A DNA stretch of 44,932 nucleotides, from the sequence record OR565852; one strand, given 5' to 3'. Positions 26,246 to 44,807 of this stretch are shown here, piece by piece. Source of the stretch: Citrobacter phage phiNP. A program made the translations under genes and the position numbers. The notes beneath the pieces were generated by a model. That model was not told the origin of the DNA. It searched no databases and saw only the letters and a list, made by a program, of their open reading frames with translations. Numbering within the stretch: the stretch's first letter is position 1; the number at the start of each line of letters is the position of its first letter.

Positions 26246-27298
26246 TTATTTTTCTGGTAACGCTCTGATTTCTTCAACGGTCTGGTTAAACCGCTCTGTT
26301 TCCAGCTCGACGCCAATAGCCTTACGGCCTAAATCGATCGCCGCTTTTAACGTGGAACCGGAGCCCATGAAGAAATCAGCTACCACATCCCCGGGTCTGC
26401 TGCTCGCGCTGATGATTTGCTTCAGCATGTCAGCAGGCTTTTCGCAGGGATGTTTGCCGGGATAAAACTGGACGGGTTTATGCGTCCATACGTCGGTATA
26501 TGGCACGGCCACCGACACGGCAAAATACCGCCGAAGGGATTTGTACTCCTCCAGCAGTTCGGAATATTTACGGTTCAGTGACTGGTATGTTGCCACCAGT
26601 TGGTGATGAGGCTGCGCCAGTTCGGCACGCTGATGCTTCTCGATAGCGATCCGGGTGAAAAGCTCCTGCAATTTGAGGTAATCCGCTTCACCCGGCAGCT
26701 GCCACTGGCTGGAACCAAACCAGTGCGAAACCATGTTCTTCTTACCAGTGGCCTCGGTGATTTGTTTCGAGGTAACGCCAAGGGATTCCCGGGCATTCTG
26801 AAAATAGGTAATAAGCGGTGTCAGCACATGCTGTTTGAGTTCACCACATTTTGCCGCGTAACCATCGTCTTTGGGCTTGCATGGCCCCTGATAGTGTTCA
26901 GCAAACAGAACACGCTCAGTGGCCGGGAAATACGCGCGCAGACTTTCTTTATTGCAGCCATTCCAGCGACCGCTCGGTTTAGCCCAAATGATGTGGTTCA
27001 GGATGCTGAAGCGGTCGCGCATTAAGATTTCAATATCTGCAGCCAGCCGGTGGCCGCAAAACAGGTAAAGGCTACCGGCGGGTTTCAACACTCGCCAGAA
27101 TTCAGCCAGGCAGCGATCGAGCCAGCGAAGATAGTCTTCATCCCCTTTCCACTGGTTATCCCATCCGTTTGGCTTCACCTTGAAGTAAGGCGGATCGGTA
27201 ACAATCAGGTCGATGGAGTTATCAGGAAGGGTGGCGATGTAATGCAGGCAGTCAGCGTTGATTAACTCAACACTGTTTATTTTTACAGTATTTTTCAT
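26246..27298 (-). CDS. DNA methyltransferase, beta-class N6A/N4C (N6_N4_Mtase-like)
   Basis: DPPYF (motif IV) lies N-terminal to FMGSGST (motif I). First gene of the late operon. Confidence 0.85.
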   Translation of the reverse strand: MKNTVKINSVELINADCLHYIATLPDNSIDLIVTDPPYFKVKPNGWDNQWKGDEDYLRWLDRCLAEFWRVLKPAGSLYLFCGHRLAADIEILMRDRFSILNHIIWAKPSGRWNGCNKESLRAYFPATERVLFAEHYQGPCKPKDDGYAAKCGELKQHVLTPLITYFQNARESLGVTSKQITEATGKKNMVSHWFGSSQWQLPGEADYLKLQELFTRIAIEKHQRAELAQPHHQLVATYQSLNRKYSELLEEYKSLRRYFAVSVAVPYTDVWTHKPVQFYPGKHPCEKPADMLKQIISASSRPGDVVADFFMGSGSTLKAAIDLGRKAIGVELETERFNQTVEEIRALPEK

Positions 27299-27447
27299 AG
27301 ATCAGTAAGCGGGACTCTGATAGGCTCACTGTGCTTTAGCGCTAAAGCGGTGGGCCTCGGTTCGCTTGTGACCTCAAACATGAGCGAATGGCTGGTGGAG
27401 TGCTCCAACACCCACCAGCCGCCCATTTTCACAGCCAATAGCCACCA

Positions 27448-27639
27448 TTACTGGAGGCGCTTATAACATCCGAATTGATAAAACGAAAACCCCGCCATCA
27501 CTAATTGCGTGAGTATAAATTCACAGCGTGCAAGGCTCAGGTGTGTATTCTCTGCAATTTCCCCAGCGGTCGCTGGCGTTGTACTTAGTTCATTAAGAAT
27601 TGCTTTCGCTTCTTCTGTCATATCTTGCTGATTTAGCAT
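27448..27639 (-). CDS. Small hypothetical protein (63 aa) in the late leader
   Basis: Start taken at MLNQQDM (27639). AT-rich, with a possible HTH. Confidence 0.4.
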   Translation of the reverse strand: MLNQQDMTEEAKAILNELSTTPATAGEIAENTHLSLARCEFILTQLVMAGFSFYQFGCYKRLQ

Positions 27640-27718
27640 GTCTTTTACCTTAAAAAATAGTGTGACATACAGATAACTCTGGTCGCCGACAGCAGCAAGA
27701 AGTCTTTGCAAAAGACAT

Positions 27719-27741
27719 AAAAAAACCCCGCCGAAACGAGG
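27719..27741 (-). terminator. Candidate tR'-like terminator downstream of the late promoter
   Basis: Minus-strand RNA CCUCG-UUUCGG-CGGGG followed by U7. Confidence 0.4.
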
Positions 27742-27778
27742 TTAGATACAGTTTTGACAAAATATCAAATTAGCCTTA

Positions 27779-27807
27779 AATATGGCTCATTTTGTTGCAT
27801 TTTGCAA
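27779..27807 (-). promoter_or_regulatory. Candidate late promoter PR'
   Basis: On the minus strand: TTGCAA (27802-27807), 17-nt spacer, CATATT (27779-27784), just downstream of Q. Confidence 0.35.
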
Positions 27808-27837
27808 GCGCGTTAGACGGAGTTAGTGAAATTTAGG

Positions 27838-28533
27838 TCACATTTCCAGCGCATTAGCCACTTCCAGCCCTTCGCGCCTGATGAGGATCGTTTGCAGCGC
27901 CTGAGTGTCAAGCTCGACGAATGCCGCTTTAAATCTCGCCCAGTGCGATGCATACACACGTAACCAGGTTGAACGATCCACAGACATCATTCGCGCCAGC
28001 GCCGCACCGGCGTATTCTTTATATGTGTCATTGCTTCTGGCCGCAGCCACCTCCTGCGCTGCCAGCCAGACAAGACCGACCAGTTTTTTCACTACCCGTG
28101 ATTGCAGCTTCTTCTCTACCCTGCAATTCTGAAACTCATTCCATACATGCTGGCACATCAGCGTCTGGTACCTGAAGTTCAGATCGAAACCGTAGCAGTA
28201 ACGGATCCATGCCTGCTGGTAGTCATCCAGTGAATTGATTACCCGGCGCCACGGCGCGTAACTAAATTCCAGATCCTGCATTGGCGGGAACGGTCGCCGC
28301 CGGCTTCTCGTTTCCAGCACATAAACAGGCGTGGTTAATGCCTTCACAAGCGAGTGTCCACAGCCTTCCCCGCCCTCCAGTTCGATAAGAGGCTGCCCGC
28401 AGCGGGGCGTTTTATTTTTGTCTGCCGGTGGATGTTCGCTAAACGCCTGCAGTTGCCCCTTTGTCCCTTCAGATAAATTCGCCAGGGCGCGCTTTACTTC
28501 TATACGGGTATATTCAATGGCCTGTAAGTTCAT
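27838..28533 (-). CDS. Q: Late antiterminator Q
   Basis: Q-family-like sequence (..QQAWIRYCYG..) and the canonical position upstream of PR' and the lysis genes. Confidence 0.75.
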   Translation of the reverse strand: MNLQAIEYTRIEVKRALANLSEGTKGQLQAFSEHPPADKNKTPRCGQPLIELEGGEGCGHSLVKALTTPVYVLETRSRRRPFPPMQDLEFSYAPWRRVINSLDDYQQAWIRYCYGFDLNFRYQTLMCQHVWNEFQNCRVEKKLQSRVVKKLVGLVWLAAQEVAAARSNDTYKEYAGAALARMMSVDRSTWLRVYASHWARFKAAFVELDTQALQTILIRREGLEVANALEM

Positions 28534-28554
28534 TCAGATTAGCGCTCCATACAC

Positions 28555-29622
28555 TTACGCTTTAACAATTACGCCGATCGCCAGCGCCCGATCCAGAAAA
28601 CGAAACAGCAGTTCCAGCTGTGTGCCATATTTCTGCTCGAACGCCGCTACATCGGCATGCAATTTGTCGTGGCACTCTCTGCACAGAGGGAACACGAACA
28701 GGTCATGGGCTTTGGTAGCAGTGCCACCCATCCCATGACCGATAACATGATGCGGATCGTCTGCCGGACGGCGACAACACTCGCAGGGCTGACTTTTAAC
28801 CCAGCGCGTATACTTCTCATTCTCCCAGCGGCGGCGCTTAGGCCGTAACATGAACGACTCCGGTGATTCAGGATCTGCGCTCAATGCAATAACCCTTGGC
28901 TGCTGCTCCTGCATTACCTGCTGATTTTCCTGTGGCCTGCACCTTTTTAACGATCCAGCCGTTTTTATCCTCCTCTGCAGGGCGACGGTTGGTCGGTTAT
29001 CTGCGGCAATAATGTCGCTTTCTTTATATACAGATGGGAACGGTTCATAGGGCATCTGCATCACTCTGGCTGCCAGTTCTTCCGGAATGGCATCTGCCAC
29101 ACCGACATAAATAGCCCACCAGCACAGCTCAGCGATCGACAATTCCCGCTCGCGATTAAACCGAAGGCCGACCAGCACGGTATCAATGATCCAGTCAATA
29201 ACGTTACGGCGCGCTATACCAGCCAACAGATCGGTTGACTGCTCACGAAGTTTGTTATCGCAGTGCCAGCAAAGCATCATCGCGCCCGGGGCGTGTCGCA
29301 TGGTCACCAGCTCATGATGGTGATAATCCGAGTGCGGGTACTGACATTCACCGATATTCCGCTCAAGCCAGTGATCCAGCCCGGAGAGACTACCCGCAGC
29401 ACGGATCACCCTCTCATCAGTGAAGAATGGGATCAGCGCTTCATCCTCCGCCAGCGGCTGCCGGGCATCAGGAACACGGCCGGTTGACAGCCTGGCCATG
29501 TTCTCCGGTTCGGACTCCACCAGCACGCGCCCCGCGGAGAAAAGGCGCATTAACTCTTTGCCCGGTTTGAGCAGTACCACGCCAAGACGTGGCACAACTT
29601 CAGGGGTTAACAGCGCTCTCAT
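28555..29622 (-). CDS. DUF968 / Ref-like HNH nuclease-domain protein
   Basis: C-terminal CECCRRPADDPHHV...PLCRECHDKLH HNH/zinc motif, as in P1 Ref/DUF968. The start at 29622 gives an ATGA overlap with the C5 MTase stop. Confidence 0.7.
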   Translation of the reverse strand: MRALLTPEVVPRLGVVLLKPGKELMRLFSAGRVLVESEPENMARLSTGRVPDARQPLAEDEALIPFFTDERVIRAAGSLSGLDHWLERNIGECQYPHSDYHHHELVTMRHAPGAMMLCWHCDNKLREQSTDLLAGIARRNVIDWIIDTVLVGLRFNRERELSIAELCWWAIYVGVADAIPEELAARVMQMPYEPFPSVYKESDIIAADNRPTVALQRRIKTAGSLKRCRPQENQQVMQEQQPRVIALSADPESPESFMLRPKRRRWENEKYTRWVKSQPCECCRRPADDPHHVIGHGMGGTATKAHDLFVFPLCRECHDKLHADVAAFEQKYGTQLELLFRFLDRALAIGVIVKA

Positions 29623-31346
29623 GCAACCTCCCGCTGCTGGTTGCATAACTCGGGCAGGTTGGCTTCTACCAGCGCACGGGCAAACGGGGGCGGAACGGCG
29701 TTACCGCAGCGCGCTACCTGCTTGTCTTTTGCATAGCGCTGGCCGCGATAATCACGATCGATAATGTAACCTTCAGGAAAGCCCTGGGCCTTATACAACT
29801 CATGAGGCTGCAACATGCGCATGCCAATATCGACGATCTGGTAGTCGGCACCATCAACCGTTACCAGGCCGAAGCGATCATTGGTTGTGACGGTTCCCAG
29901 CGGTTCATCCAGCGATACGCCGCTTTTTTCATTTCCGTAGTACTTCATCAGGAAGGCGCGAACCTCTCCGATATGCAGACCGCCGGCGGTCACCGTAGGC
30001 ATGGGCTGATCCACTTTTCGACCGTCTTTGCAGGTACCGCGCAGATGAACCAGGTGTGAGGTCACAACAGCATGGTGATCAGTGGTCGTAACGGTATGCG
30101 CAGGTGCATCCATAGCGGCACCCGGCCCCGTATAATTACCGCCGAAGTGTTTCGCCAGAAAGGTGGTCACCAGCTGCGACTTTCCACCACCGCCAGCGGT
30201 TACTGTTCCATTGGGTTCATCAGCGCCGTGTCCGGTACTGTTACCAAACTGGCGGGCTATCATTGGCGCCACCAGGCAGGCGCGGGACTCTTTTAACACG
30301 GTGTGGGCCGGTTTATTTATCGCCCGCGGCTTCGCCTGATATTCGCTACCACCATTACCGGCGATAAACGGGGTAACGACAGCGTATCCATGGGTTTTGG
30401 TAATAGTCTGCAGCGGACTATCAATGCCCTGCCCACGAAAGCAGTCATATGCCGTGCGGCTGCTGGTGTGATTACACTTCACAATAAACGGTGTCGGGTT
30501 GTTCAGCACAAACCGCTCAATACCACGCGCAATGCGCTTCAGCGTATTTTCCGCCAGCAGCTTTGGGCGCTCAAAAATGCTCTGGCAGGGGATTGACCAG
30601 TCGATACACTCCGCCGCGGTACGCCATGGCGCCAGCCTGCCGCTCTGAACTTCCAGCGATTTAGGATCGCCATGTGTTGGCTCTGGCCAGTGAATTTCCT
30701 CACCATCACAGCGCATGACCATGAAGAATCGCTTGCGGATCGTCGGCGCGCCGAAATCGCAGGCTCGCAGTTCGCGATAATCGATGCCGTAGCCCAGCCC
30801 GTTAATAAGGCGCTGCGCCTGCTCGCTGCCTTTAGGTACAGACAGGAACTCGCACACCTCAGACAGGGCGGGATGATCCGCAGGTATGCCGGTGGATAGC
30901 ATGCCAACAAACGCCGCGAAGGTTTCGCCCGCGCGGGATGGATCCGGGCGCATTTCGTCTGCCAGCAGCGGCCCCCACGTTTTGAACTCCTCCACGTTCT
31001 CCAGCATCATGACACGCGGGCGCTTCGCCAGCGCCCAGCGTACTACTACCCACGCCAGACCGCGAATCTCTTTTTTTACCGGCTTAGCACCCTTCGCCTT
31101 TGAGAAGTGGCGGCAATCAGGGCTAAACCAGGCCAGGCCGACCGGATTACCACCAGTGGCCGCCAGCGGATCAACGTCAAACACGGACTCGCAGTAATGC
31201 AGGGTATCGGGGTGGTTAGTTTTGTGCATAGCGATCGCGTTTTCATCGTGGTTGATGGCAATATCCACGCTGCGCCCGATCGCCAGCTCGATCCCGGTAC
31301 TCGCGCCGCCGCCACCAGCAAAGTTATCAACGATAATTTCACGCAT
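29619..31346 (-). CDS. DNA (cytosine-5) methyltransferase, unusually long (575 aa)
   Basis: Motif I DNFAGGGG, motif IV SPDCRHFS, motif VI ENVEEF, motif VIII PTIRKRFF, motif IX MLQPHELYKAQGFP and motif X GNAVPPP. Start taken at MREIIV (31346). Confidence 0.9.
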   Translation of the reverse strand: MREIIVDNFAGGGGASTGIELAIGRSVDIAINHDENAIAMHKTNHPDTLHYCESVFDVDPLAATGGNPVGLAWFSPDCRHFSKAKGAKPVKKEIRGLAWVVVRWALAKRPRVMMLENVEEFKTWGPLLADEMRPDPSRAGETFAAFVGMLSTGIPADHPALSEVCEFLSVPKGSEQAQRLINGLGYGIDYRELRACDFGAPTIRKRFFMVMRCDGEEIHWPEPTHGDPKSLEVQSGRLAPWRTAAECIDWSIPCQSIFERPKLLAENTLKRIARGIERFVLNNPTPFIVKCNHTSSRTAYDCFRGQGIDSPLQTITKTHGYAVVTPFIAGNGGSEYQAKPRAINKPAHTVLKESRACLVAPMIARQFGNSTGHGADEPNGTVTAGGGGKSQLVTTFLAKHFGGNYTGPGAAMDAPAHTVTTTDHHAVVTSHLVHLRGTCKDGRKVDQPMPTVTAGGLHIGEVRAFLMKYYGNEKSGVSLDEPLGTVTTNDRFGLVTVDGADYQIVDIGMRMLQPHELYKAQGFPEGYIIDRDYRGQRYAKDKQVARCGNAVPPPFARALVEANLPELCNQQREVA

Positions 31347-32220
31347 TGACGGCTCCCTGCATGCTGTAGACCAGACCACCAGCCACGGTGATTATTTCGC
31401 TGGTGGGCATACGCTCAAGCCAGAGCTGATTGATGTTCGCCTTCAGCTTGTTCTGCTGGGCCAACTCCAGAGAATCCGCTCCCTCAACCTGATTGAATAC
31501 CAGGCCAACCTCCAGCGGCCAGATACGCGACTCCACTTCTGGCTGTCCCAAGCCAGCAGGCATAACGTCTTCCACCGGGGCTGGCGGCACCACTTTTTCC
31601 GCGGCAAATTGGGCCAGCGACATAAATGCCCGCCCCTTAGCCTCTAGATCACTGCGATGAATGTAGCTGAAACGCTCGCCCCGCCATGTCTTATCGAATA
31701 CCACTATGGCGCCAGCGAAAAATGCGCTGGTAGGCTGCTGTTTCTCGTCTGCCGGGATAAACCATGCAGGCAGGTCGAAGCCAATGCGGCCACGGATGAA
31801 AACAATATGATCAGCATCTTCAGGCCACCATGTTTCACTAGGTGCCGCTTTGATGAGGAACACATAGCGACCGCCCTTCTCACGCATGGCAGAGGCATAG
31901 CTCATGATATGACTCATGCCGGTGATCGCCTGCTTACCGTCGTATTGCGATCGGCTATAGGGCGGATTGCCGAACGCGGCGCCACCGATGGCGATCAGCA
32001 TTTCCGACCAATCCTGTGTCAGAGCGTTATCTTCGGCGGTGTACCAGACCGGGCATTTGGCGTTACTGTCGTCGGCGAACAAATCCAGCATCAGCGGCCC
32101 AAACATCGCATTGATGCCCCAGAACAACAGTTCCGGCGTGCGCCACTGATCGCCAACTTCTTTTAACTCGTGGACTGGCTTGCTACGTAGTTCAGCCAGC
32201 GCCAGGCAGTATTTATTCAT
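31339..32220 (-). CDS. Phage Dam-type N6-adenine DNA methyltransferase (WRTP...NPPY family) with a C-terminal extension
   Basis: DQWRTPELLF, DLFA and GNPPYS motifs. Confidence 0.8.
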   Translation of the reverse strand: MNKYCLALAELRSKPVHELKEVGDQWRTPELLFWGINAMFGPLMLDLFADDSNAKCPVWYTAEDNALTQDWSEMLIAIGGAAFGNPPYSRSQYDGKQAITGMSHIMSYASAMREKGGRYVFLIKAAPSETWWPEDADHIVFIRGRIGFDLPAWFIPADEKQQPTSAFFAGAIVVFDKTWRGERFSYIHRSDLEAKGRAFMSLAQFAAEKVVPPAPVEDVMPAGLGQPEVESRIWPLEVGLVFNQVEGADSLELAQQNKLKANINQLWLERMPTSEIITVAGGLVYSMQGAVNA

Positions 32221-33089
32221 GAGCGAAATCCCGAGTTTTCTGGTAGTGAATAATCCACATCTTTGAAGGTTGCCCGCGCAGCAGGGCTGTGGTTGTTAAC
32301 CCACTCGCCATTTTTGCGCTCAGGGCGACCAGCCTTGTGCCATTTGTTCGCGGCCTGCAGGTAACCAGGGAATTTCGTTGGGTGAAACAGTGTCGTAGGT
32401 CGAAGGTACTCGGACATTTTAAAATCCTGCCCCCATTTCTCGGTCATGTACTCCACAACCAGAGTGAGTTCGTAGATGGTGAACCCCTCCCCCAGCCGGG
32501 CGCGAATATTCTCCAGCGACGTTTTCCCCACCTGATAACGGGATCCTGTTTTTTGGTTCAGAAAAGTCAGAACCTGTTTAGCCTGATCAGTGATCTCCAC
32601 AGCAGGGGCGGGTTGCGACGCAACCGGACAAGAAGTTTTTTTATCTGATGGATCAGTAGTTGATTTTACTGACGGATCCCCGCCAGATTCTGACGGGTGA
32701 AAACCGCCATTTTTATCAGATTTTGACGCCTCAATTTTTGACGGGTCAGATTTTGATGCGTCAGATTTTGACGGGTCAGAATCTGGCAGGTGAGAGAATG
32801 CCGCCGCCTGGAGTTTCCTCACATTAAGTCGATAAACATTGGATGCATTACGGTTACCCTGGCGGCGAGCGGTACGGGTCAACCACCCTTCAGCTTCCAG
32901 CTTTGCAATAGCCGTTCTGACTGTGCTGGACCCCGCCCCAATCTGGCGAGCGATAGTCTCAATGGACGGCCAGGAAACGCCTTCATCGTTACTGAAGTCT
33001 GCCAGGCGTGCCATGATTGCGACACTGGAAATCTTCATGCCAGCCGCCGCACAGCCATCCCAGACGTATGCAGATAATTTAACGCTCAC
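32217..33089 (-). CDS. Replication initiation protein (N-terminal wHTH, phage conserved C-terminal domain; lambda O analogue)
   Basis: GTG start. N-terminal HTH (WPSIETIARQIGAGSSTVRTAIAKLEAEGWL), a central pentapeptide repeat linker and a C-terminal Phg_2220_C-like part. Confidence 0.7.
   Translation of the reverse strand: MSVKLSAYVWDGCAAAGMKISSVAIMARLADFSNDEGVSWPSIETIARQIGAGSSTVRTAIAKLEAEGWLTRTARRQGNRNASNVYRLNVRKLQAAAFSHLPDSDPSKSDASKSDPSKIEASKSDKNGGFHPSESGGDPSVKSTTDPSDKKTSCPVASQPAPAVEITDQAKQVLTFLNQKTGSRYQVGKTSLENIRARLGEGFTIYELTLVVEYMTEKWGQDFKMSEYLRPTTLFHPTKFPGYLQAANKWHKAGRPERKNGEWVNNHSPAARATFKDVDYSLPENSGFRS
32716..32790. repeat. Five perfect-register tandem 15-bp repeats (TCAGATTTTGACGGG consensus) inside the replication gene; candidate ori iterons
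   Basis: Units at 32716, 32731, 32746, 32761 and 32776, with degenerate copies at 32661 and 32683. Confidence 0.8.
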
Positions 33090-33265
33090 TTATCTACCCT
33101 CACGAATCTGGAACGAAACACGATCAGCGGTGCCGCACATTCCCAGTCATATCCTGGGCGGCGGTAGATAACACGCTGTCCAGTTGCGTCATAACCGATC
33201 ACATTTACGACAATACCGTGATGATCCCGGTAATATCGGTTCAGAGGTTGAATATGCTCTGTCAC
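33086..33265 (-). CDS. Small protein (59 aa), DUF4222-like
   Basis: Hand translation VTEHIQPLNRYYRDHHGIVVNVIGYDATGQRVIYRRPGYDWECAAPLIVFRSRFVRVDK*. GTG start; its stop overlaps the GTG start of the replication gene. Confidence 0.45.
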   Translation of the reverse strand: MTEHIQPLNRYYRDHHGIVVNVIGYDATGQRVIYRRPGYDWECAAPLIVFRSRFVRVDK

Positions 33266-33266
33266 G

Positions 33267-33971
33267 TTAGCCCCCCATCAATTCGGAGGCGTAGCGCTCG
33301 GCGATCCACTGGACGCCACGAGGTGTTACGCGGGTTTGCGTATAGGCATGACCGAAATCAGACGTGCCGGTTTTGACAGTGAACAGGCCCTCCCGCTGGC
33401 GCAGGGCATGAGGCAGCAAATTGCCGGACTGGCGGAACAAAACCTTGTCACGCACCAGTGCATCTATCATGGCTTTTTCCGGCATGTTGAGGATCTTCGC
33501 CGTCTCACGCAGGCCTTTGGCGCCGCCAGACTCTACGTAGTGGTTTACGAACGCCACCTTTGGCGCGTCCTGCTGAACCTTATGTGACAGCTGCGCATTC
33601 TGCTCTGCCATATCGGCGGCCAGGCGGAGCGCTTCGGGGAGGGTCTGGGGAATTAATGCTGTGCTTTCCAGCTCCTGCCAGCGATCCACAACCGCAGCCG
33701 TAAACTCAGGAGAAAGTCTGGCAACCAGCACCAAAGAATCGCGTTTGTTGAACCGATATTCCTGATAAACGTTGCCGTTATGCTCAAAATCGAACTGCGC
33801 CAACGGCGCGGTTAAAAGACCAGCAGCATTCAGGCGCTCAGCGGAGCGTTTGACGTCACCATGTTTACTCTGCACAAGAGCGGCGATTTCACGGCTGCTC
33901 ATTGTCACTACGCCGCCGAATGCAGGTGAAAAACCAGCAGCCTGTGCGCGATTAATCAATTGCTGTGGCAT
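33267..33971 (-). CDS. Rha-family regulator fused to a KilAC antirepressor domain
   Basis: N-terminal Rha motif ([24 protein letters not shown]) and a C-terminal KilA-C/ANT-like domain. Start at 33971 follows RBS GGAGG. Confidence 0.75.
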
Positions 33972-35769: not shown

Positions 35770-35795
35770 AGCCGCCGCTTAATGGCGGCTTTTTC
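35770..35795 (+). terminator. Intrinsic terminator of cI
   Basis: AGCCGCC (35770-35776) / GGCGGCT (35784-35790) followed by TTTTT. Confidence 0.7.
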
Positions 35796-35807
35796 ATACC
35801 CTAAATA

Positions 35808-35859
35808 TTGCGAATTACGCATTTTATTACTTGCGTAATTCGCAATATTATTTTATCTT
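35808..35859 (+). promoter_or_regulatory. OL/PL-like region: two inverted operator copies overlapping a rightward promoter
   Basis: TTGCGAATTACGCAT (35808-35822) and TTGCGTAATTCGCAA (35831-35845). -35 TTGCGT (35831-35836), 17 nt, -10 TATCTT (35854-35859). Confidence 0.55.
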
Positions 35860-35865
35860 CATTCC

Positions 35866-36583
35866 ATCAACAGCGAACAGGCAGGACGCCCACGAAGTAG
35901 CCGCCCGGGGCATATGAAGGCCGGGATGATTCGCTCAGAACATGGCGAAAGCCGAAAGACTTGAAGGCGGTTTTCTCAGGTTGCGCGCTAAAGCATAGCG
36001 GGGAGAACCTGGGGCGGAGAGCAAACCCCGCGATTCAGGACATGATCGCCTGTGCATACCAATAAGCCGTCTGGCAGCGTAACTGCTCTTTACATTGGCA
36101 CCGGCAAAGTGGCGCCGCTGAACCGAGGCTGGTGGATCGTAAAACCGCAGGAGCAAGCAACAAACGGTAGTCCGTATGGAGAAAAATCCGTTGAGTAAGG
36201 GGCCTGGCCGGAACCGTAACCGGCACACAACGATGAGAGCATTGACGAGCAAGGTTTAATGTCCGGTTCGATTCCAGACACCACGAAGCGGTGGCAATGG
36301 GCAGGGAAAAGGTCCGTTCAATTCGGACACCGGCAGTGCTCTCTTCGTTGTGGAGTATACAAGCGTATTGCAGCGCCGGTCGACGCAAAGACCCGTAAAT
36401 CGACTGAGCCGTAGTTACTGGCGGCCAATACCAAAACAGAGCGGCGGGAAGTAAGTAGGGGTAGCGCCCTGGTGTCACAACCAAATCACGCTTAGGACCG
36501 TGATAACCGTAGTACCAATATTGCTGTGTGTAGTCTTGGCGGTACCAGTTCCATCCCTTGAAGTCCCTGGTACCGCCCTTTTT
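35866..36583 (+). ncRNA. Candidate large (about 0.7 kb) structured non-coding RNA transcribed from PL; unclassified
   Basis: No + strand ORF of 60 aa or more. Coding-like G+C, many short perfect helices and a defined promoter and terminator. The ends are inferred, not measured. Confidence 0.35.
36538..36583 (+). terminator. Strong intrinsic terminator inside the early-left leader
   Basis: Perfect 11-bp stem GGCGGTACCAG (36538-36548) / CTGGTACCGCC (36567-36577), followed by CTTTTT. Confidence 0.7.
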
Positions 36584-36745
36584 ACACAAGAGACAAGAGC
36601 ATCACCGGGCGACGGGCTCATAACCCAATCCACCCGGGCGTTAAGGAAGTGGTCTTCTCACCCATGACCAGCGCGCAGGTGCTCTTTTCTGTTGTGTATG
36701 GAGAAACTTACGGCGGCGGCAGCCGCTTAACCGAGAGGAAATGCT

Positions 36746-37173: not shown

Positions 37174-38001
37174 ATGTCTCAGGTAGACAGCGGTACTTTT
37201 AAGCAGGTTAAAGATCTGGTTCTTTCTGGTTATCACCTGAATGATATTAACGGCCTGGCTTGCCCAACAGCATTACTCCCGGAAGAAACTCGCGTTGAAA
37301 GCCTCGAGCGCTTTTCTCTTGAGCGCTTCCGTTTCCGTGGGGCCATGACCACAACCAGCATTGATGATTTTGCCCGTTATTCTAAAGGCTACGCCAGTAC
37401 CGAGGAACCTGCTCGCTGCTTTATTGATGCGGACAATATGACTGCGCGATCCGTGTTCAATATCGGCACGCTGGATAATCCGGGCCATGCTGATAACGTT
37501 GCTGCAATCACCCTGAAGCAGACTGCGCCTTTCCGCGCGCTGCTGGCGATCAACGGCGACCGCCTGAAGCAAAAGCAAATCGCTGAATGGCTGGAAGACT
37601 GGAGTGATTATCTGCTGGCCTTTGATGCTGACGGAAATACCATGCAAATTTCACAGGCTGCTCAGGCTGTTCGACGCATCACTATCCAGCAGGCCACCCA
37701 ACAAGATCATGAAGACGGTGATTTCAGCGGGAAAAAATCGCTGATGCAGAGTGTTGAGGCCAGCAGCAAAGATGTTATGCCTGTAGCGTTTGAGTTCAAA
37801 TGCGTGCCATACGAAGGGCTTGGTGAGCGTGCATTCAGCCTGCGCAATAGTCTGCTCACTGGTGACGAACCGCGTTTTGTACTGCGCATTGTTCAACTGG
37901 AAGCGCAGGAAGAAGCGATCGCCAACGAATTCCGCGACCTGCTGATCGGCAAATTCGACGGCGAGCCAGTGGAAACCTTTATCGGTAACTTTAAAGCGTA
38001 A
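37174..38001 (+). CDS. YfdQ-like (DUF2303) protein
   Basis: Start at MSQVDSG after RBS AAGGA. Resembles E. coli CPS-53 YfdQ as I remember it and is followed by a YfdR-like gene. Confidence 0.65.
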   Translation: MSQVDSGTFKQVKDLVLSGYHLNDINGLACPTALLPEETRVESLERFSLERFRFRGAMTTTSIDDFARYSKGYASTEEPARCFIDADNMTARSVFNIGTLDNPGHADNVAAITLKQTAPFRALLAINGDRLKQKQIAEWLEDWSDYLLAFDADGNTMQISQAAQAVRRITIQQATQQDHEDGDFSGKKSLMQSVEASSKDVMPVAFEFKCVPYEGLGERAFSLRNSLLTGDEPRFVLRIVQLEAQEEAIANEFRDLLIGKFDGEPVETFIGNFKA

Positions 38002-38139
38002 TTGCTCAGCCTTAATTGCCCTGCCCCGCGGGGCAATTAGTGAAGCGTAATTCATTTAAATATCGCCATCTGGCGAGGGATTCGTGCAACCAAAAATCAG
38101 CCGAAGGTGCAGCTGCGAATAAATGGAGAAATAAAACCG

Positions 38140-38682
38140 ATGAGCTACATACAGACATTATCAGGCAAGAAATTCGACTATGTGAATGCCACTGTTGACG
38201 ATATTGAGATCGAAGATATAGCGACCGCGCTTTCCCATATCTGCCGCTTTGCCGGCCACCTGCCGGAGTTCTACTCCGTGGCCCAACACTCAGTTCTGTG
38301 CAGCCAGCTGGTAGAGCCTGAGTTTGCCTTTGAAGCGCTGATGCACGACGCCGCAGAAGCGTATTGTCAGGATATTCCCGCACCGCTTAAAGCCCTGCTG
38401 CCGGACTACCGCCGGATTGAGGCGTTTGTCGACGAACTGATCCGCTTTAAATTCAATCTGCCGCTCACACAGTCTCCTGTAGTGAAATATGCCGATCTGA
38501 CAATGCTGGCTACCGAACGCCGGGATCTGGACATTGACGACGGTACATCGTGGCCCATCCTCGAAGGAATCCCCACCAGCGACCTTATCCAGATCGCTCC
38601 TCTTCGCCCGGGCCAGGCTTACGGACTTTTCATGACCCGCTTTAACGAACTGATGGAGCTGCGCGCATGCAACACCATATGA
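38140..38682 (+). CDS. HD-domain 5'-deoxynucleotidase, YfdR-like
   Basis: SHICRFAGHLPEFYSVAQHSVLCS...HDAAEAY HD motifs. Confidence 0.8.
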   Translation: MSYIQTLSGKKFDYVNATVDDIEIEDIATALSHICRFAGHLPEFYSVAQHSVLCSQLVEPEFAFEALMHDAAEAYCQDIPAPLKALLPDYRRIEAFVDELIRFKFNLPLTQSPVVKYADLTMLATERRDLDIDDGTSWPILEGIPTSDLIQIAPLRPGQAYGLFMTRFNELMELRACNTI

Positions 38683-38867
38683 AAGTAAAAGAACTGGTTG
38701 CCGCGGCACGCATGGCAGCGTCTGACCTTCCACCAGCAGCGGCACAGTTAATGCGTGAAGTCGCCACCAGACTGGATGTGACCTTTGTTGCCCTGAGTGA
38801 AGCTCTGGATCAGCGCGTCACCCTTATGGCAGAGAACGAAATTTTACGCGGGGATAAATCGCAATGA
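38679..38867 (+). CDS. Small hypothetical protein
   Basis: ATGA coupling to the YfdR-like stop. Confidence 0.5.
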   Translation: MKVKELVAAARMAASDLPPAAAQLMREVATRLDVTFVALSEALDQRVTLMAENEILRGDKSQ

Positions 38868-39190
38868 ACGAACAAACTACAGTTAAACACCTCCATTTCT
38901 ACGGTGCCAGCGATGATCTGCTGGAATGCGAAGGCGCGATCCGCGAGGAGATTGGTTGCTATAACTCTCCAGGCATCTATCACCTCAAATCCGCCGAGGG
39001 TGAAATGCAGGTTGTCGGTTATTACCTCGACTCCGGGCTGTGGAGCATCGGAATCAGCCAGGTCGCCGAAGATACGCCGCTGCCAGCGTGGCCCGTCACT
39101 TACGCCATGCATGAGCGTGGTTACAGTGTCCAGCTCACCATCACTGTGCCGGACGACGCCATTCTGGTTTTGTCAGAGGAAGATGAATGA
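38864..39190 (+). CDS. Hypothetical protein
   Basis: Translationally coupled on both sides. Confidence 0.55.
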   Translation: MNEQTTVKHLHFYGASDDLLECEGAIREEIGCYNSPGIYHLKSAEGEMQVVGYYLDSGLWSIGISQVAEDTPLPAWPVTYAMHERGYSVQLTITVPDDAILVLSEEDE

Positions 39191-39918
39191 GCATTACCCT
39201 GCATAACGCCGACTGCTTCGATGTTTTTCCGACGATTGCCAGCGGTTCCGTAGACATGGTGTGTGCGGATATTCCCTACGGTACCACGCAGTGCTGCTGG
39301 GATTCGGTGCTTGACCTCGAGGTGATGTGGCATGAACTGTACCGCATCGCCAAGCCGTCAGCGGCAATTGTCCTGTTTTCGGCTCAACCGTTTACCGCGG
39401 TGCTGGTCGGCAGCAACCTGGCGGACTGGCGATCCGAGTGGATTTGGGAAAAAGGCAACGCCACCGGCTTCCTTAATGCCAAAAAACAGCCGTTGCGTGC
39501 CCATGAAAATATAGAGGTGTTTTATCGTCGCCAGCCGACATACAACCCGCAGTTTACCCATGGTCATGCGCGCAGAACATCGAAGCGCAAAACCGTCAAT
39601 TCGGAGTGCTACGGCAAAGCGCTGACGCTGACTAAGTATGACTCAACCAGCCGGTACCCGCGCGATGTGCAGTTTTTCTCGAGTGACAAGCAAACCGGTA
39701 ATTTCCATCCCACCCAGAAGCCGCTGGCGCTGGTTCAGTACCTGATCGAGACCTACAGCAACCCCGGCGATACGGTGCTGGATTTCACAATGGGAAGCGG
39801 TACCGCAGGAGTCGCCTGCCTGCGTGTCGGGCGCTGCTTTATTGGCATTGAGAAAGACACCTCAATATTTCAGGTCGCGCGTCATCGTATAGGGACTAAG
39901 CAGGAGCATGCAGCATGA
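39187..39918 (+). CDS. DNA methyltransferase, beta-class N6A/N4C with DIPY catalytic motif
   Basis: ADIPYG (motif IV), HPTQKP and FTMGSGT (motif I). Confidence 0.85.
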   Translation: MSITLHNADCFDVFPTIASGSVDMVCADIPYGTTQCCWDSVLDLEVMWHELYRIAKPSAAIVLFSAQPFTAVLVGSNLADWRSEWIWEKGNATGFLNAKKQPLRAHENIEVFYRRQPTYNPQFTHGHARRTSKRKTVNSECYGKALTLTKYDSTSRYPRDVQFFSSDKQTGNFHPTQKPLALVQYLIETYSNPGDTVLDFTMGSGTAGVACLRVGRCFIGIEKDTSIFQVARHRIGTKQEHAA

Positions 39919-40112
39919 AGATCCGCTGTTTTTTCGGGCTTCATAAATGGGTGCTGTTCAAGAAAGAGCTTCACCCATATCAATCTCTTAACGGACTGCA
40001 GCCAACTATTATTTTCCACTATGGGTGTAATGGCTGCGGCAAGACCAGAACAGAGACTCGCGAAGAGGGTTACTGGCATTCTTTTAAACCATCAGATTTG
40101 GAGCACATGTAA
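39915..40112 (+). CDS. Small Cys-containing hypothetical protein
   Basis: GLHKW...CNGCGK; coupled to its neighbours. Confidence 0.5.
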   Translation: MKIRCFFGLHKWVLFKKELHPYQSLNGLQPTIIFHYGCNGCGKTRTETREEGYWHSFKPSDLEHM

Positions 40113-40679
40113 TGAACCACCTTATGATCGACCTAGAAACGATGGGTAATAAGCCTGCTGCGCCAATTGTCGCGATCGGCGCTGTGTTTTTCGACCCGAA
40201 AAGCGGTGAGCTGGGCGCCGAGTTCTATGTGGCCGTCAACCTCGCCAGCGCCATGGATCAGGGTGCTACCCCTGACGGTGACACGATCCTGTGGTGGCTG
40301 AAGCAATCAGCGGAAGCTCGCGCTGCTATTTGTACCGACGACACTAAGAACATCGCCGAAGCGCTCTCCGAGCTTAGGTCATTTATTAGCCGTAACTCTG
40401 ACAAACCGCGTTATCTGAAAGTCTGGGGCAATGGCGCCAATTTCGACAACGTTATTTTGCGTTCAGCCTATGAACGCGCCGGCCAAACCTGCCCGTGGCA
40501 ATTCTGGAACGACAGCGACGTGCAGCACCATGGTGCTGCTCGGCAAACAGCTTGGTTTCGATCCAAAGCGCGATATGCCATTTGATGGTGTAGCCCACAA
40601 CGCACTGGCCGATGCCCACCACCAGGTGAAATATGTATCGGCAATCTGGCAGCGACTATTGCCCGCCAGCGCCGAATAA
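40112..40679 (+). pseudogene. DnaQ-like 3'-5' exonuclease interrupted by a 1-nt frameshift
   Basis: ORF 40112-40585 carries MIDLETMG...GNGANFD. The last motif (HNALADA) sits in ORF 40431-40679, in another frame. The frames switch at about 40520-40530. Confidence 0.7.
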
Positions 40680-40709
40680 TACCCCTAATAGCCCGGGTGC
40701 AGCCGGGCA

Positions 40710-40928
40710 ATGGAGAAATTTATGCTGAGCCTCGATTGTGTTCCCATCTCAACTTATTGCAAAGAGACAGGCGAAACTCCTGATGCGATCAACAAGCGCG
40801 TACAGCGCGGTGTGTGGCGTGAAGGGGTTCAGGTGCTGAAAGTCGAAGGCGTTAAGGAGAGATGGATAGATCTTAGTGAGGTTGCAAAATGGGCCAGACA
40901 GAATCGCCTAAACTCCCGCGCGGCGTAA
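40710..40928 (+). CDS. xis: Excisionase-like protein (DUF1233-type)
   Basis: Small basic wHTH-like protein whose 3' end overlaps the int start. Confidence 0.65.
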   Translation: MEKFMLSLDCVPISTYCKETGETPDAINKRVQRGVWREGVQVLKVEGVKERWIDLSEVAKWARQNRLNSRAA

Positions 40929-42055
40929 CCATCAGGAAACATCGCAACGGTCAAACCATCAATATTACTTTTACATATAAAGGGGTGAAATGCCGTGAGC
41001 CTCTTTCTAATCTGGACGTAACCCCTAAAAATATCAAATACGCCGAGCGCACACTCGGCGAAATCCATAACAAGATCGAAAGGGGAACGTTTGTTTACGC
41101 GGAATACTTTCCCCGTTCTACCCGATTAAAAATTTTCGGAAACGCTGCCGCAGGAAAAACGGTGAAGATGTATCTGGATGAGTATCTGGTGATCTGCGAA
41201 ACGAGGAAGCTTTCCCCTTCGACAATAGGCGGGTACAAGAAATGCCGAAGCGCATTGTCATCACTTCATATTTATCCTGCAAGTGAGTTGACGCCGGCTG
41301 CATTGAAGACATGGATCCAGAACCAGAAAACGACATTGAAGACCATCCGAAACCAGTTGTCATTCCTGCGTTCTGCATTGGATGAAGCAGTGACAGATGG
41401 TGTGCTTCAGATTAACCCTGTATCTCTGGTAACAGCCTCACGATACCAAAGTGATAAATCAGAGGCAGAAAGTAGTTATGTGGTTGATCCGCTATCACCA
41501 GCAGAAGTTGATGCTTTGCTCTCTGCTACTGGCAATAAGCAGTGGGAGAATCTTTTCCGGTTCGCGATACAAACAGGGCTGCGTAGTTCCGAATTGTGTG
41601 CTCTTCGTTGGCGTGATATCGACTTTGTAGGGAAGACTGCCCATATCCAGAGCGCCAGTGTTGTTGGTGTGATCAAAGGGACCAAGACAAAAGCAGGTAC
41701 CCGTAAAGTTGAACTCACAGATGAAGCAATGTCGGCTCTGATAAATCAGAAACCGTTCACGTTCATGAAGGGCGCTACTGTCTTTGAGGATCCAAAGACC
41801 AATAAGCCGTGGGCAAGTGCTGATGCAATTAGAAAAAAGGCATGGGTGCCGACATTGCGAAAGGCTGGTATTCGGTACAGAAACCCATATCAGACTAGAC
41901 ATACATTCGCCACATGCCATATCAGCCGGGGAACAAACTTGTTCTGGCTTGCGACTCAAATGGGACATAAAGGCCCAGAGATGCTTTTCCGTCACTACGG
42001 CTCATATCTGAAGGAATATGATGGACAAACAAGCCTGAAGAAGATAAAAATATAA
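40889..42055 (+). CDS. int: Tyrosine integrase with N-terminal arm-binding domain
   Basis: LPRGVTIRKHRNGQTINITFTYKG arm domain. Catalytic LRSSELCALRWRDI, TRHTFAT and GHKGPEMLFRHYGSY motifs. Confidence 0.9.
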   Translation: MGQTESPKLPRGVTIRKHRNGQTINITFTYKGVKCREPLSNLDVTPKNIKYAERTLGEIHNKIERGTFVYAEYFPRSTRLKIFGNAAAGKTVKMYLDEYLVICETRKLSPSTIGGYKKCRSALSSLHIYPASELTPAALKTWIQNQKTTLKTIRNQLSFLRSALDEAVTDGVLQINPVSLVTASRYQSDKSEAESSYVVDPLSPAEVDALLSATGNKQWENLFRFAIQTGLRSSELCALRWRDIDFVGKTAHIQSASVVGVIKGTKTKAGTRKVELTDEAMSALINQKPFTFMKGATVFEDPKTNKPWASADAIRKKAWVPTLRKAGIRYRNPYQTRHTFATCHISRGTNLFWLATQMGHKGPEMLFRHYGSYLKEYDGQTSLKKIKI

Positions 42056-42112
42056 TCCATGTCTGAATTATTGGCCGCAATTTGTGGCCATTTCATGGAA
42101 CAAGGTACAAAC

Positions 42113-43846
42113 ATGGCAAATCCAATAACCAAACTAAAAAAAATAAACGTTGTAAAATTTCGAGGACTAAAAAATATAAATATAGAATTTGGTTCGCGAC
42201 TAACTGTTATTTGTGGTAAAAACGGCACATCTAAATCGACAATTCTTGGTATTATCGCCCAAATTTTTAGTTTTACAAAAGATCTGTCTAAGAACCCCGA
42301 GGTTGATTTAACACAATATAAGACATTAACTAATGGCACCTTCAAGTCAGCTTTCAGTGAACATTTTAGACTTTCAGAACAATTTGATACTGCAGGTTCA
42401 ATGGAAGTCAGGATTAGTGTTTATGATGGTGCATCTAACAAACATCTTGAAAAGCTAACATTGGGTCTATACAGCTCCAGTGACAGGGATAAATCAAGGC
42501 CAATAGTCAGGGGCAATGATTCCATACCGGGGAAAAACCAAAGTAGAAACGTCACTCATCCAGTTATTTTTCTAAGCTTAGCAAGACTTCTCCCTATTAC
42601 TCTACGGACTGATTACTCAACAAGGGATGTTCAGTATATCAATGAAAACGCAGATGATATAAGAATAATGAGCAATCAACTCTTACTTAAGAATAATGGG
42701 TGCTCAGTAACAGCCACGAAAGGGACGATCGATTCAATGGTCGTACACGGCGATAATTACGACCATCAATCAGTCTCTGTTGGTGAGGATAATGTTGGAC
42801 AATTAATTCAAGCAATATTTTCCTTTAAAAGGCTAAAAGAACTTTATGACGATTATCATGGAGGTATTTTATTAATTGATGAAGCGGACGCAGGTCTTTT
42901 CCCTGCTGCTCAGTTAGAATTAATTGACATTCTAGCTAAAGCAGCTAAAAAATATGACTTGCAAATAATCATGACTTCTCACTCACCATTAATAATAGAA
43001 GATATTTTCAATCGTTCCAAACAAGATGCCAACGGATTTAAAACAATATATCTGACAGATACTTATGGTGATATTAAAACAAAAGACAATCTATCATGGG
43101 CCGATATCAATGCTGATTTGCATGTTGAAACTGTAAAAATAAATGATGAGATTAGCCTTCCAAAAGCCAACGTATATTTTGAAGATAAAGAAGGCTTCGA
43201 TTTTTTCAAACAATTGATAATTGATAGAAGAATAAACAGAATATTGAATCCATTAGGAAACATAAATATTAGTTGTACTGCTATCCTAGATTTAATGGCT
43301 AGAAAAGTCCCTGAGTTTACTAACAAAAGCCTAGTTGTCTTAGACGGTGATGTTGCTCTCGATAACAGTGACAATGCTAAAAAAGCGAAAAAAGAGAGAA
43401 GCTTATGCTTGCTTCCAGGCATTCTTCCCCCAGATCAAATGATTTTTGAATTCTTATATAACTTACCTCCAGACGATATATATTGGAACAATAAAAATAG
43501 ATTTACAAAAGCAGTATTTATGAAAATAACAAAAGACATAATTACAACATTAAAAATAAGTAACTATCCTATTGATTTACTAAATTCTATAGAGAATTAT
43601 AAAAAATCAAACAAAAACCATGGCGGAGTGGTTAGAAAACTATTTAAAGATTTTGTCCATACGCCTGAGTTCCTAGCACAAGTAAAAGGGCGAGTTAAAG
43701 ATAATCCTTATCGATATTGGGTCGAGAAACACCCCGTAGAATCCGATAATTTCAAGCATGAATTAATCAAAAACCTTAAAATTATTATGACAAATGGACA
43801 TGGCGTTGACTCTGCTACCATCACTTCGTATCTGTCTGGCAACTAA
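42113..43846 (+). CDS. OLD-family-like protein: N-terminal ABC/AAA_15-type ATPase plus C-terminal Toprim-like domain
   Basis: Walker A GKNGTSKST, signature-like SVGEDNVGQ, Walker B ILLIDEADAGLFP, H-loop TSHSP, then YFEDKEG ... VVLDGDVA (Glu + DxD). The start could instead be 42059 or 42095. Confidence 0.7.
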   Translation: MANPITKLKKINVVKFRGLKNINIEFGSRLTVICGKNGTSKSTILGIIAQIFSFTKDLSKNPEVDLTQYKTLTNGTFKSAFSEHFRLSEQFDTAGSMEVRISVYDGASNKHLEKLTLGLYSSSDRDKSRPIVRGNDSIPGKNQSRNVTHPVIFLSLARLLPITLRTDYSTRDVQYINENADDIRIMSNQLLLKNNGCSVTATKGTIDSMVVHGDNYDHQSVSVGEDNVGQLIQAIFSFKRLKELYDDYHGGILLIDEADAGLFPAAQLELIDILAKAAKKYDLQIIMTSHSPLIIEDIFNRSKQDANGFKTIYLTDTYGDIKTKDNLSWADINADLHVETVKINDEISLPKANVYFEDKEGFDFFKQLIIDRRINRILNPLGNINISCTAILDLMARKVPEFTNKSLVVLDGDVALDNSDNAKKAKKERSLCLLPGILPPDQMIFEFLYNLPPDDIYWNNKNRFTKAVFMKITKDIITTLKISNYPIDLLNSIENYKKSNKNHGGVVRKLFKDFVHTPEFLAQVKGRVKDNPYRYWVEKHPVESDNFKHELIKNLKIIMTNGHGVDSATITSYLSGN

Positions 43847-43854
43847 TTGATTGA

Positions 43855-43891
43855 AAAGGGCTTTATATGATGGCCATAAAGCCCTTTTTTT
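43855..43891 (+). terminator. Intrinsic terminator between the ATPase and methylase genes
   Basis: Perfect 12-bp stem AAAGGGCTTTAT / ATAAAGCCCTTT followed by a T run. Confidence 0.8.
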
Positions 43892-43925
43892 GATATACTT
43901 TAGACTTGACATTTAGAGGTATCAT

Positions 43926-44807
43926 ATGCGTTTTAACACCCCACTTCGTTATCCTGGCGGCAAAGGCAAGCTTTCTAATTTCATGCTTCGGATTATTGAA
44001 GATAATAAGCTTTCGCCTATACATTATGCAGAGCCATATGCTGGGGGTGCTGGTTTAGCGCTGAAGCTGTTACACTTAAATGTAGCTGAAAAAATCATTC
44101 TTAATGATATTAATATCTCAGTTTATGCTTTTTGGCACAGTGTATTAAATAATGCAGATCATTTATGTGCTTTAATTGAGGATACTGAAGTCACAATGGA
44201 TGAGTGGTTCAAACAGAAAGAAATAATTAATCATCCAAGAGACCATGATATGCTAACAATTGGTTTTTCTACCTTTTTTCTTAATAGAACAAATCGTTCT
44301 GGAATATTAAAAGGCGGTGTAATTGGTGGTAAAAATCAAGAAGGGCAATGGAAACTTGATGCTCGTTATAACAAGAGCGATTTAATTTCTCGGATTCAGA
44401 AAATATCAAAAAACCGTGAAAGAATAGATTTGTATAACATGGATGCAATTGATTTCATAAAAAAAATAGTTGTTCAATTGCCTAAAAAATCATTAACATA
44501 TTTAGATCCGCCATATTATATAAAAGGTAAGGGATTATATATCAATCATTATGAACATAGTGACCATGTTAATGTTGCAAAAGTAGTGCAGCATGATATT
44601 AAAACACCGTGGATTGTTTCTTACGATAACACTCCTGAGATCCAAGGTATGTATAAGGCATCATCATTAGTGTATGGAATAAACTACAGTGCTCAAGATC
44701 GATATAAGGGCTCAGAAGTGATGTTCTTCAGTAAACGATTGAAAGTCTTTAAAACCGATGATCCAACTAAGGTAAAAGCACCTACCAATAAAAATGCTAT
44801 GAGCTAG
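43926..44807 (+). CDS. D12-class (alpha) N6-adenine DNA methyltransferase, Dam-like
   Basis: PLRYPGGK, EPYAGGAG (FxGxG) and LDPPYY motifs in alpha-class order. Confidence 0.9.
   Translation: MRFNTPLRYPGGKGKLSNFMLRIIEDNKLSPIHYAEPYAGGAGLALKLLHLNVAEKIILNDINISVYAFWHSVLNNADHLCALIEDTEVTMDEWFKQKEIINHPRDHDMLTIGFSTFFLNRTNRSGILKGGVIGGKNQEGQWKLDARYNKSDLISRIQKISKNRERIDLYNMDAIDFIKKIVVQLPKKSLTYLDPPYYIKGKGLYINHYEHSDHVNVAKVVQHDIKTPWIVSYDNTPEIQGMYKASSLVYGINYSAQDRYKGSEVMFFSKRLKVFKTDDPTKVKAPTNKNAMS

Follow-up and report, generated by a model that had tools for sequence, protein, structure and literature searches.

Five DNA methyltransferase genes in the Citrobacter rodentium prophage ΦNP: modules with probably separate roles

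Why does a single temperate phage carry five DNA methyltransferase (methylase) genes? The question is raised by ΦNP, a prophage of Citrobacter rodentium, whose sequence (Citrobacter phage phiNP, record OR565852; the whole stretch of 44,932 nucleotides (nt) is referred to below as the window) encodes five such enzymes, here designated g1 to g5. A first-pass annotation, made from the sequence alone, had observed the five genes correctly and had regarded them as presumably serving broad anti-restriction, an interpretation that is only partly correct. It also overlooked the C-terminal module of g3, an array of six units in g2 and the pairing of g5 with its neighbour. We consider it probable that the five genes represent four independent, horizontally exchangeable modules (g1, the pair g3–g2, g4, and g5 with its partner) with separate roles, and not one system.

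Five genes of four families and their occurrence in relatives

The products of open reading frames (ORFs) were scored against the curated cut-offs of Pfam, with NCBIfam, PADLOC and PHROGs as further profile sets. The five genes reported by the first-pass annotation all match real ORFs (Table 1), and all five products score above the Pfam cut-offs and have intact motifs. The four architectures that it distinguished hold as four Pfam families (PF01555 twice, PF00145, PF05869 and PF02086), with which the assignments by NCBIfam, PADLOC and PHROGs agree, and none of the five was reassigned to non-DNA methyltransferases by the profile searches. Each of the five has full-length homologues in hundreds to thousands. 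No sixth methylase was found among the ORFs scanned, which included those between the lysis and terminase genes and several in the early-left region, and did not include the structural genes.

All five genes do lie in one 45-kb phage, enclosed by att repeats at both ends. The 25-bp repeat GGTTCAACTCCCGCCAGCTCCACCA, which opens and closes the window, is the reverse complement of the published attP core of ΦNP, i.e. of the 3' end of the transfer-messenger RNA gene ssrA (PMC6456863). The window is the complete 44,932-bp ΦNP prophage of C. rodentium ICC168, integrated in ssrA, and exact copies of its proteins are present in the ICC168 record FN543502.1. The gene g5 lies past the integrase gene int and is still inside the prophage, because the att repeat lies farther out; the possibility that g5 is host DNA outside the prophage is ruled out by this repeat on its far side.

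Judged by the number of genes, the investment in DNA modification is as heavy as the first-pass annotation had it: ΦNP has five genes, whereas prophages average about 0.25 solitary methylases each (717 in a survey of 2827; PMC4176335) and the nearest relatives possess two or three. Phages with at least three methylases have been described in a gut-virome atlas as a recognizable class tied to broad host range (PMC12636319), and our search of the literature for phages with four to six methylases yielded nothing but unrelated papers on cancer and plants. The relatives carry subsets of the five: g1, g2 and g3 occur in Eeyore and Kp4866-6, g1 and g5 in E. coli M10, g3 and g5 in JJ1886, and g1 and g3 in phage 1720a-02. 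The latter, a lambdoid/Stx phage with two methylases, shares with ΦNP a backbone comprising the O-like gene, Dam, DUF968, Q, a methylase and the lysis genes, to which ΦNP adds the C5-cytosine enzyme, g4 and the OLD/g5 cassette. By a crude count, no more than three of these genes are found within 10 kb of the C5 gene at each of 80 species-representative loci with a g2 homologue, compared with four in ΦNP. Since the relatives carry two or three of the modules and ΦNP their union, the number of methylases is high but combinatorial. ΦNP is a union of modules that circulate separately, and its parts are ordinary.

The late, early-right and early-left methylases

The five genes are distributed over both strands. 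On the minus strand the early part comprises, in this order, cro, a cII-like gene, an antirepressor gene, the O-like gene, g3, g2, the DUF968/HNH gene and Q, which are followed by a terminator-like hairpin (by analogy with lambda, perhaps tR'-like), a small ORF, g1, the holin and other lysis genes, terminase and the structural genes. The plus-strand series runs from cI, past a strong terminator at 35774 and through the early-left genes (g4 among them), to xis, int, the ATPase gene and g5. This order is compatible with the temporal classes proposed by the first-pass annotation (early-left, early-right, first late gene and lysogen-expressed cargo), which we infer from position only. As had also been noted, the early-right operon contains a single O-like gene; neither a helicase nor a loader turned up among the scanned proteins. 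Its genes O, g3, g2 and DUF968 overlap successively by 4–8 nt, which identifies them, as far as gene layout can tell, as translationally coupled.

The late gene g1, which immediately precedes the holin gene, encodes a beta-class enzyme (146.6 bits against PF01555, cut-off 26.7), with DPPY at residue 35 and FFMGSGS at residue 310, i.e. with motif IV located N-terminally to motif I. It is 79% identical over 347 residues, with no gaps, to a 349-aa prophage enzyme of E. coli O104:H4 strain 2009EL-2071, whose gene lies downstream of Q, as g1 lies between Q and the lysis/late region, and 78% identical over the full length to the methylase of phage 1720a-02. Murray et al. (PMC5778455) noted a very close similarity between the 1720a-02 enzyme and M.EcoGII, a beta-class protein of 349 aa whose methylation of adenine is independent of sequence context. 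M.EcoGII remains silent in the lysogen, and its constitutive expression is toxic to cells. The agreement of g1 with M.EcoGII and M.EcoGI extends to nearly equal length (350 and 349 aa), the same order of DPPY…FxGxG motifs and the same slot downstream of Q, and on grounds of sequence g1 is a member of the M.EcoGI/M.EcoGII family. On the other hand, about 21% of the residues differ between g1 and the O104:H4 allele, whose own identity with M.EcoGII could not be confirmed. The family is widespread, being present in 2027 of 5426 complete E. coli genomes (37%), in up to seven copies per genome. By its family and position g1 probably lacks sequence specificity and acts late on DNA due for packaging: expressed from the late operon, it would methylate adenines of the progeny DNA with little or no specificity just before packaging, and these marks would protect broadly against restriction in the next host.

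The second module is formed by g3 and g2. The N-terminal domain of g3 belongs to the phage Dam family (PF05869/TIGR01712), which includes the Dam enzymes of phages T1, HP1 and VT-2. It scores 201.9 bits against the TIGR01712 equivalog phage_N6A_met (cut-off 97.05), has NPPY at residue 85, and is probably GATC-specific, as its family assignment suggests. What distinguishes g3 from a 217-aa phage Dam of an E. coli prophage is a C-terminal module of about 65 residues, which matches no Pfam family and is absent from the shorter protein. This module proved to be an almost constant companion of the C5 gene: among the 69 of the 80 species loci with an extractable upstream ORF, which form the base of our neighbour counts, 64 encode it immediately ahead of the C5 gene. 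In 31 loci it is fused to phage Dam (Dam is directly upstream of C5 in 31/69), in about 20 it constitutes a free ORF of about 85 aa, and in the remaining ones it is fused to an MT-A70 domain, to a class-I S-adenosylmethionine-dependent methylase-like domain or to a ParB protein with a helix-turn-helix. In the reverse test, in which viral contigs with the module were collected, a g2-like gene was found at -4 (8-nt overlap) in 64 of 77, while in the other 13 the module is followed by an antirepressor gene, RusA or an internally deleted C5 gene. Judged by this arrangement, phage Dam and C5 enzyme form a conserved pair in g3–g2, with translational coupling of the two genes. Two peculiarities of the upstream gene may be recorded: in Eeyore (locus L197, 13150-14484) the Dam-plus-tail gene is annotated as phosphoadenosine phosphosulfate (PAPS) reductase (phrog_33262), and at three loci (L027, L030 and L078) an N-terminal extension of about 290 residues precedes the Dam domain, and the ORF ahead of the C5 gene reaches 572–595 aa.

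The longest ORF of g2 starts from GTG at 31379, and public gene calls start at the ATG used by the first-pass annotation. The protein (73.5 bits against PF00145, cut-off 22; more than 8000 homologues) contains motifs I, IV, VI, VIII, IX and X in the form of FAGGGG, PDCRHFS, ENV, TIRKR, QGFP and GNAVPP, with P-D-C instead of the usual P-C in motif IV. Between motifs VIII and IX it carries six tandem units resembling target recognition domains (TRDs), each of which begins with P-x-x-T-[VI]-[TL], and the sixth of which extends into motif IX. In 201 homologues the array comprises 4–9 units per protein in 103 collinear combinations; clustering at 60% identity yields 38 types of units, about 25 of them recurrent, and units have been gained, lost and replaced in a modular fashion. 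From Enterobacterales the family reaches into the Firmicutes, with homologues of about 58% identity in Paenibacillus and Sporomusa. An internally deleted C5 gene was observed in the IMG/VR contig L132 (from about position 4131 onward), in which FAGGGG of motif I is fused straight to a GGGGKSQLV unit. Because of this junction, the glycine runs may be points of recombination at which units are gained or lost.

A similar layout is known from C5 enzymes of Bacillus phages (M.SPRI, M.Phi3TI and M.H2I), in which each of the tandem TRDs recognizes one target sequence (PMC8936443). Like g2, these are phage-encoded and possess several short, similar modules between motifs VIII and IX; g2 is distinguished by its six units (4–9 in homologues), and the likeness drawn here is one of layout. 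An AlphaFold model of g2 based on 31 close homologues attained a mean predicted local distance difference test (pLDDT) score of 35, which gives no structural reading of the array, and a comparison of the array alone with PDB sequences returned no match. Since the model failed, the resemblance to the Bacillus multi-TRD enzymes is a lead suggested by analogy and not a demonstration. In the early-right operon, g3–g2 would probably act on phage DNA during replication, with GATC and one or more cytosine motifs as targets. More tentatively, the pair might be an undescribed phage methylation machine, in which a combinatorial TRD-like C5 array is joined with a dedicated partner, the ~65-aa module, that could dock a second DNA-binding or modifying protein onto the C5 enzyme; we think this possible, though doubtful. 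If each unit is a TRD, every array would yield a multi-motif pattern of 5-methylcytosine (m5C), and if the pair is such a machine, ΦNP would write many more than five marks, with adenine and cytosine methylation physically coupled.

The early-left gene g4, downstream of cI and its terminator on the plus strand, encodes a small beta-class enzyme (95.7 bits against PF01555, cut-off 26.7) that would act early. It has DIPY, a variant of DPPY, at residue 28 and TMGSGT near the C-terminus. Among 120 homologues D[I/V]PY is conserved in 118 and MGSGT in 117, which is modest evidence of constraint, because all of them are at least 80% identical. In two other species (loci L054 and L058) a g4-like gene of 78–81% identity lies directly upstream of the tail-plus-C5 unit; g4 behaves as a cassette that moves between operons, since these copies lie outside the early-left block.

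The prophage-end cassette and other features of ΦNP

The first-pass annotation had counted g5 among the anti-restriction genes as lysogen-expressed cargo; the evidence points instead to the modification half of a defence cassette. The protein is an alpha-class enzyme (65 bits against PF02086, cut-off 22), with AGGAG at the N-terminus and DPPY at residue 194. It is not a canonical Dam, because its score against the dam profile TIGR00571 (50.5) is below the cut-off (114.85), and it matches the PADLOC profile PD-Lambda-5_B over positions 1-284 of 291 with an E-value of 2.8e-123. PD-λ-5 is an experimentally selected E. coli prophage system that joins a ParB/HEPN protein with a methyltransferase, confers broad protection, could be cloned only in an mrr-deleted host, and was regarded by its discoverers as a compacted prophage restriction-modification (R-M) and abortive infection system (PMC9519451). 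As in PD-λ-5 (Vassallo et al. 2022), g5 comes second in a prophage cassette of two genes, but the partner is an OLD-family ATPase with a Toprim-like domain instead of a ParB/HEPN protein. The neighbour of g5 has no match to PD-Lambda-5_A, with families considered up to an E-value of 1e-13, whereas at a control locus (L110), whose g5 homologue is 53% identical, a true pair of PD-Lambda-5_A and B was recognized. Membership of ΦNP in PD-λ-5 is ruled out, as component A is absent.

The partner gene begins 4 nt after int, and its pairing with the methylase gene is conserved. Of 25 viral contigs, 22 retain the pair, at identities as low as 38% for the methylase and 32% for the ATPase, and 85 of 5426 E. 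coli genomes (about 1.6% of the complete genomes) have the int–ATPase–methylase block at one end of a prophage. The cassette (42059-44807, plus strand) has 34% G+C inside a phage of about 55%. An N-terminal ABC-type ATPase, as in the OLD family, is present in the partner, and the assignment of the remainder is based on fold: an AlphaFold model (62 homologues, pLDDT 87.7) gave as its three best Foldseek matches full-length OLD-family proteins (Thermus OLD, Gabija GajA), over about 600 columns and with E-values of about 3e-12, and E375, D376, D429 and D431, invariant in the 62 homologues, occupy strand ends, a placement known from Toprim domains. Sequence comparisons did not reveal a Toprim domain: Pfam searches with the C-terminal 273 residues found no match, alignment with P2 Old by hhalign was confined to the Walker B region, and a profile search of PDB sequences matched ATPase heads only. 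The partner thus resembles P2 Old, Thermus scotoductus OLD and GajA in having an ABC-ATPase head and, to judge from the fold, a Toprim-like domain behind it; an E…DxD signature, invariant in its homologues, would correspond to that of the OLD family. Like P2 old, the cassette is cargo at a prophage end, whereas similarity to P2 Old in sequence is restricted to the Walker B region; another difference is its pairing with a methyltransferase, instead of standing alone or pairing with a UvrD-like helicase.

From its modelled fold, the partner of g5 looks like an OLD-family nuclease, and the best reading of g5 is that of the self-marking half of an R-M-like defence cassette: it would mark the DNA of the lysogen as self, and the predicted nuclease would attack unmarked incoming DNA. 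Such a cassette would serve in defence against superinfection and possibly in prophage addiction. The earlier suggestion that methylation might be self-marking for the OLD-like protein is backed by the conserved pairing and the fold of the partner. The corresponding suggestion for the DUF968 HNH protein found no support, as DUF968 occurs in relatives without the C5 enzyme, and the C5 enzyme without DUF968 at many loci.

Table 1. Methylase genes and other features located in the window
Feature	Coordinates	Strand	Evidence
attL, 25-bp core from the 3' end of ssrA	1..25	+	identical 25-mer at 44908-44932; matches published attP (PMC6456863)
g1, beta-class N6-adenine methyltransferase, first long gene after Q	26246..27298	-	PF01555, E 1.4e-42
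Terminator-like hairpin with T-run, between Q and g1	27724..27743	-	consensus scan
Antiterminator Q	27838..28533	-	PF06323, E 6.9e-35
DUF968/HNH-like protein, coupled to g2	28555..29646	-	PF06147, E 1.7e-71; phrog_96 HNH endonuclease
g2, C5-cytosine methyltransferase, 575 aa	29619..31346	-	PF00145, E 2.7e-20
Six tandem TRD-like units of 32–43 aa in g2, aa 311–521, motifs VIII to IX	29775..30416	-	sequence
g3, C-terminal module of ~65 aa, aa ~228–293, 8-nt overlap with the start of g2	31339..31539	-	phrog_16025
g3, N-terminal phage Dam domain, aa 1–204 (gene 31339-32220)	31609..32220	-	PF05869, E 1.1e-43; TIGR01712
O-like replication initiator, sole recognizable replication gene	32217..33089	-	PF13730 (HTH_36), PF09524 (Phg_2220_C)
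g4, small beta-class N6/N4 methyltransferase, 243 aa, early-left block	39187..39918	+	PF01555, E 5.1e-27
Tyrosine integrase	40889..42055	+	PF12167, PF00589
OLD-family ABC-ATPase, 595 aa, Toprim-like C-terminal domain, partner of g5	42059..43846	+	AAA_15, AAA_21; fold
g5, alpha-class D12 methyltransferase, PD-λ-5_B type	43926..44807	+	PF02086, E 1.1e-17
attR, second copy of the 25-bp core	44908..44932	+	repeat match

In ICC168, the right-hand att repeat is followed by a truncated second integrase gene and then by insertion sequence (IS) elements and lifA. A tRNA search of the window found none, the att core being just the final 25 nt of ssrA. ΦNP is an active temperate myovirus (PMC3072379); it adsorbs to the recA1 strain DH5α and forms no plaques on it (PMC6456863). 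It is conceivable, as a matter of speculation, that ΦNP depends on RecA, given its single O-like gene and its DUF968/HNH protein. Several regions stand apart from the genes discussed above. A stretch of about 950 bp (35800-36740) that separates the cI terminator from the first early-left gene has no convincing ORF, and about 3.2 kb around this region contain 14 terminator-like hairpins versus 3.8 expected. On the plus strand near the left end, a 51-aa ORF (667-822) resembles a HicA toxin (…GSHHQFKHP…) and is followed by a 136-aa ORF (846-1256), a candidate HicB partner, both judged by eye only. Four late-region ORFs between the lysis genes and terminase (21858-24294, minus strand) have no assigned function; two overlapping ones show weak, sub-threshold matches to MptE-like proteins (PF01973) and one a faint match to glycosyltransferases, so that these ORFs could be involved in modification of virion proteins or DNA.

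Separate roles weighed against alternatives

The leading alternative to four separate modules, that all five genes encode orphan anti-restriction methylases which protect phage DNA broadly at every stage of the cycle, appears to us unlikely, although it has several facts on its side. Solitary methylases are enriched in prophages and temperate phages (PMC4176335), in gut phages the number of methylases correlates with the breadth of host range (PMC12636319), the motifs are intact in all five proteins, and ΦNP plates on E. coli MG1655 despite EcoKI. This explanation is difficult to reconcile with g5, which is tightly and anciently paired with an OLD-family ATPase and predicted nuclease and belongs to the family of the methylase of a validated defence system, in a cassette that is poor in G+C and located beyond int, as defence morons are. 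Moreover, if g1 is non-specific, further adenine methylases would add little protection.

Another alternative, to which we assign a still lower probability, is that fewer than five genes are functional and that inactive passengers or decaying relics inflate the count. The first-pass annotation had itself regarded redundancy of specificities as a point against its interpretation, and this probably applies in part: an M.EcoGII-like g1 would cover all adenine sites, and a GATC-specific g3 would duplicate the host Dam, since the latter already methylates the GATC sites examined in C. rodentium (all 438 GATC-containing protospacer-adjacent motif sites; PMC12805903). Inactive genes would also agree with the non-canonical DIPY motif of g4, with the frequent silence or inactivity of prophage methylases such as M.EcoGII and M.BatI, and with the loss of the C5 gene in relatives, one of which has the internally deleted copy. 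Yet all five ORFs are full length with complete sets of motifs, the D[I/V]PY motif is the rule among g4 homologues, full-length homologues of every gene are numerous, and transcripts from 65 of 65 coding sequences of ΦNP were detected in culture (PMC3072379).

That the early methylases mainly serve the biology of the phage itself (epigenetic control of lysogeny and lysis, replication, packaging, or discrimination of phage DNA by the DUF968 HNH protein) is the least probable alternative, as the higher abundance of solitary methylases in integrated prophages compared with temperate phage genomes, a hint at a function in lysogeny (PMC4176335), the translational coupling of O, g3, g2 and DUF968 and the location of DUF968 downstream of the C5 gene at many loci are offset by close relatives that have DUF968 without g2 or g3, by the many loci with g2 and no DUF968, and by the lack of known regulatory targets.

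Four separate modules are thus the preferred explanation, and several observations weigh against it as well. Neither of the two papers on ΦNP (PMC6456863 and PMC3072379) mentions methylation in its main text. Identity of 79% to the O104:H4 enzyme is no proof that g1 is non-specific. Promoter scans at int, the ATPase gene and g5 gave matches no commoner than in shuffled sequence, and we therefore make no claim of expression of the cassette in the lysogen. Finally, ΦNP grown on C. rodentium plates efficiently on MG1655, which possesses EcoKI, McrA, McrBC and Mrr (PMC6456863). This fits evasion of EcoKI, yet it is awkward for dense m5C, and very dense m5C or Mrr-sensitive N6-methyladenine on virion DNA is therefore disfavoured; alternatively, the marks of ΦNP may escape McrA, McrBC and Mrr.

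As regards its significance, the number of five is a curiosity and not a new principle, every module being common alone, and the array of g2 and the coupled ~65-aa module are more novel than the count. The value of the combination lies in its setting: C. rodentium is the main mouse model for infection with enteropathogenic and enterohaemorrhagic E. coli (EPEC and EHEC), and its temperate phage ΦNP can be cultivated, also lysogenizes E. coli K-12 (PMC3072379), and unites a probable non-specific adenine methylase, a Dam/C5 pair, a further early enzyme and a methylase-linked cassette with a predicted OLD nuclease. ΦNP is therefore a compact system in which the share of each kind of methylation in crossing restriction barriers, and the redundancy among them, can be studied, and it is equally suited to study of the collision between phage methylation and restriction by McrBC, Mrr and McrA. 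The cassette of an OLD-family protein and a methylase, if it acts as predicted, would extend the validated PD-λ-5 family to another effector.

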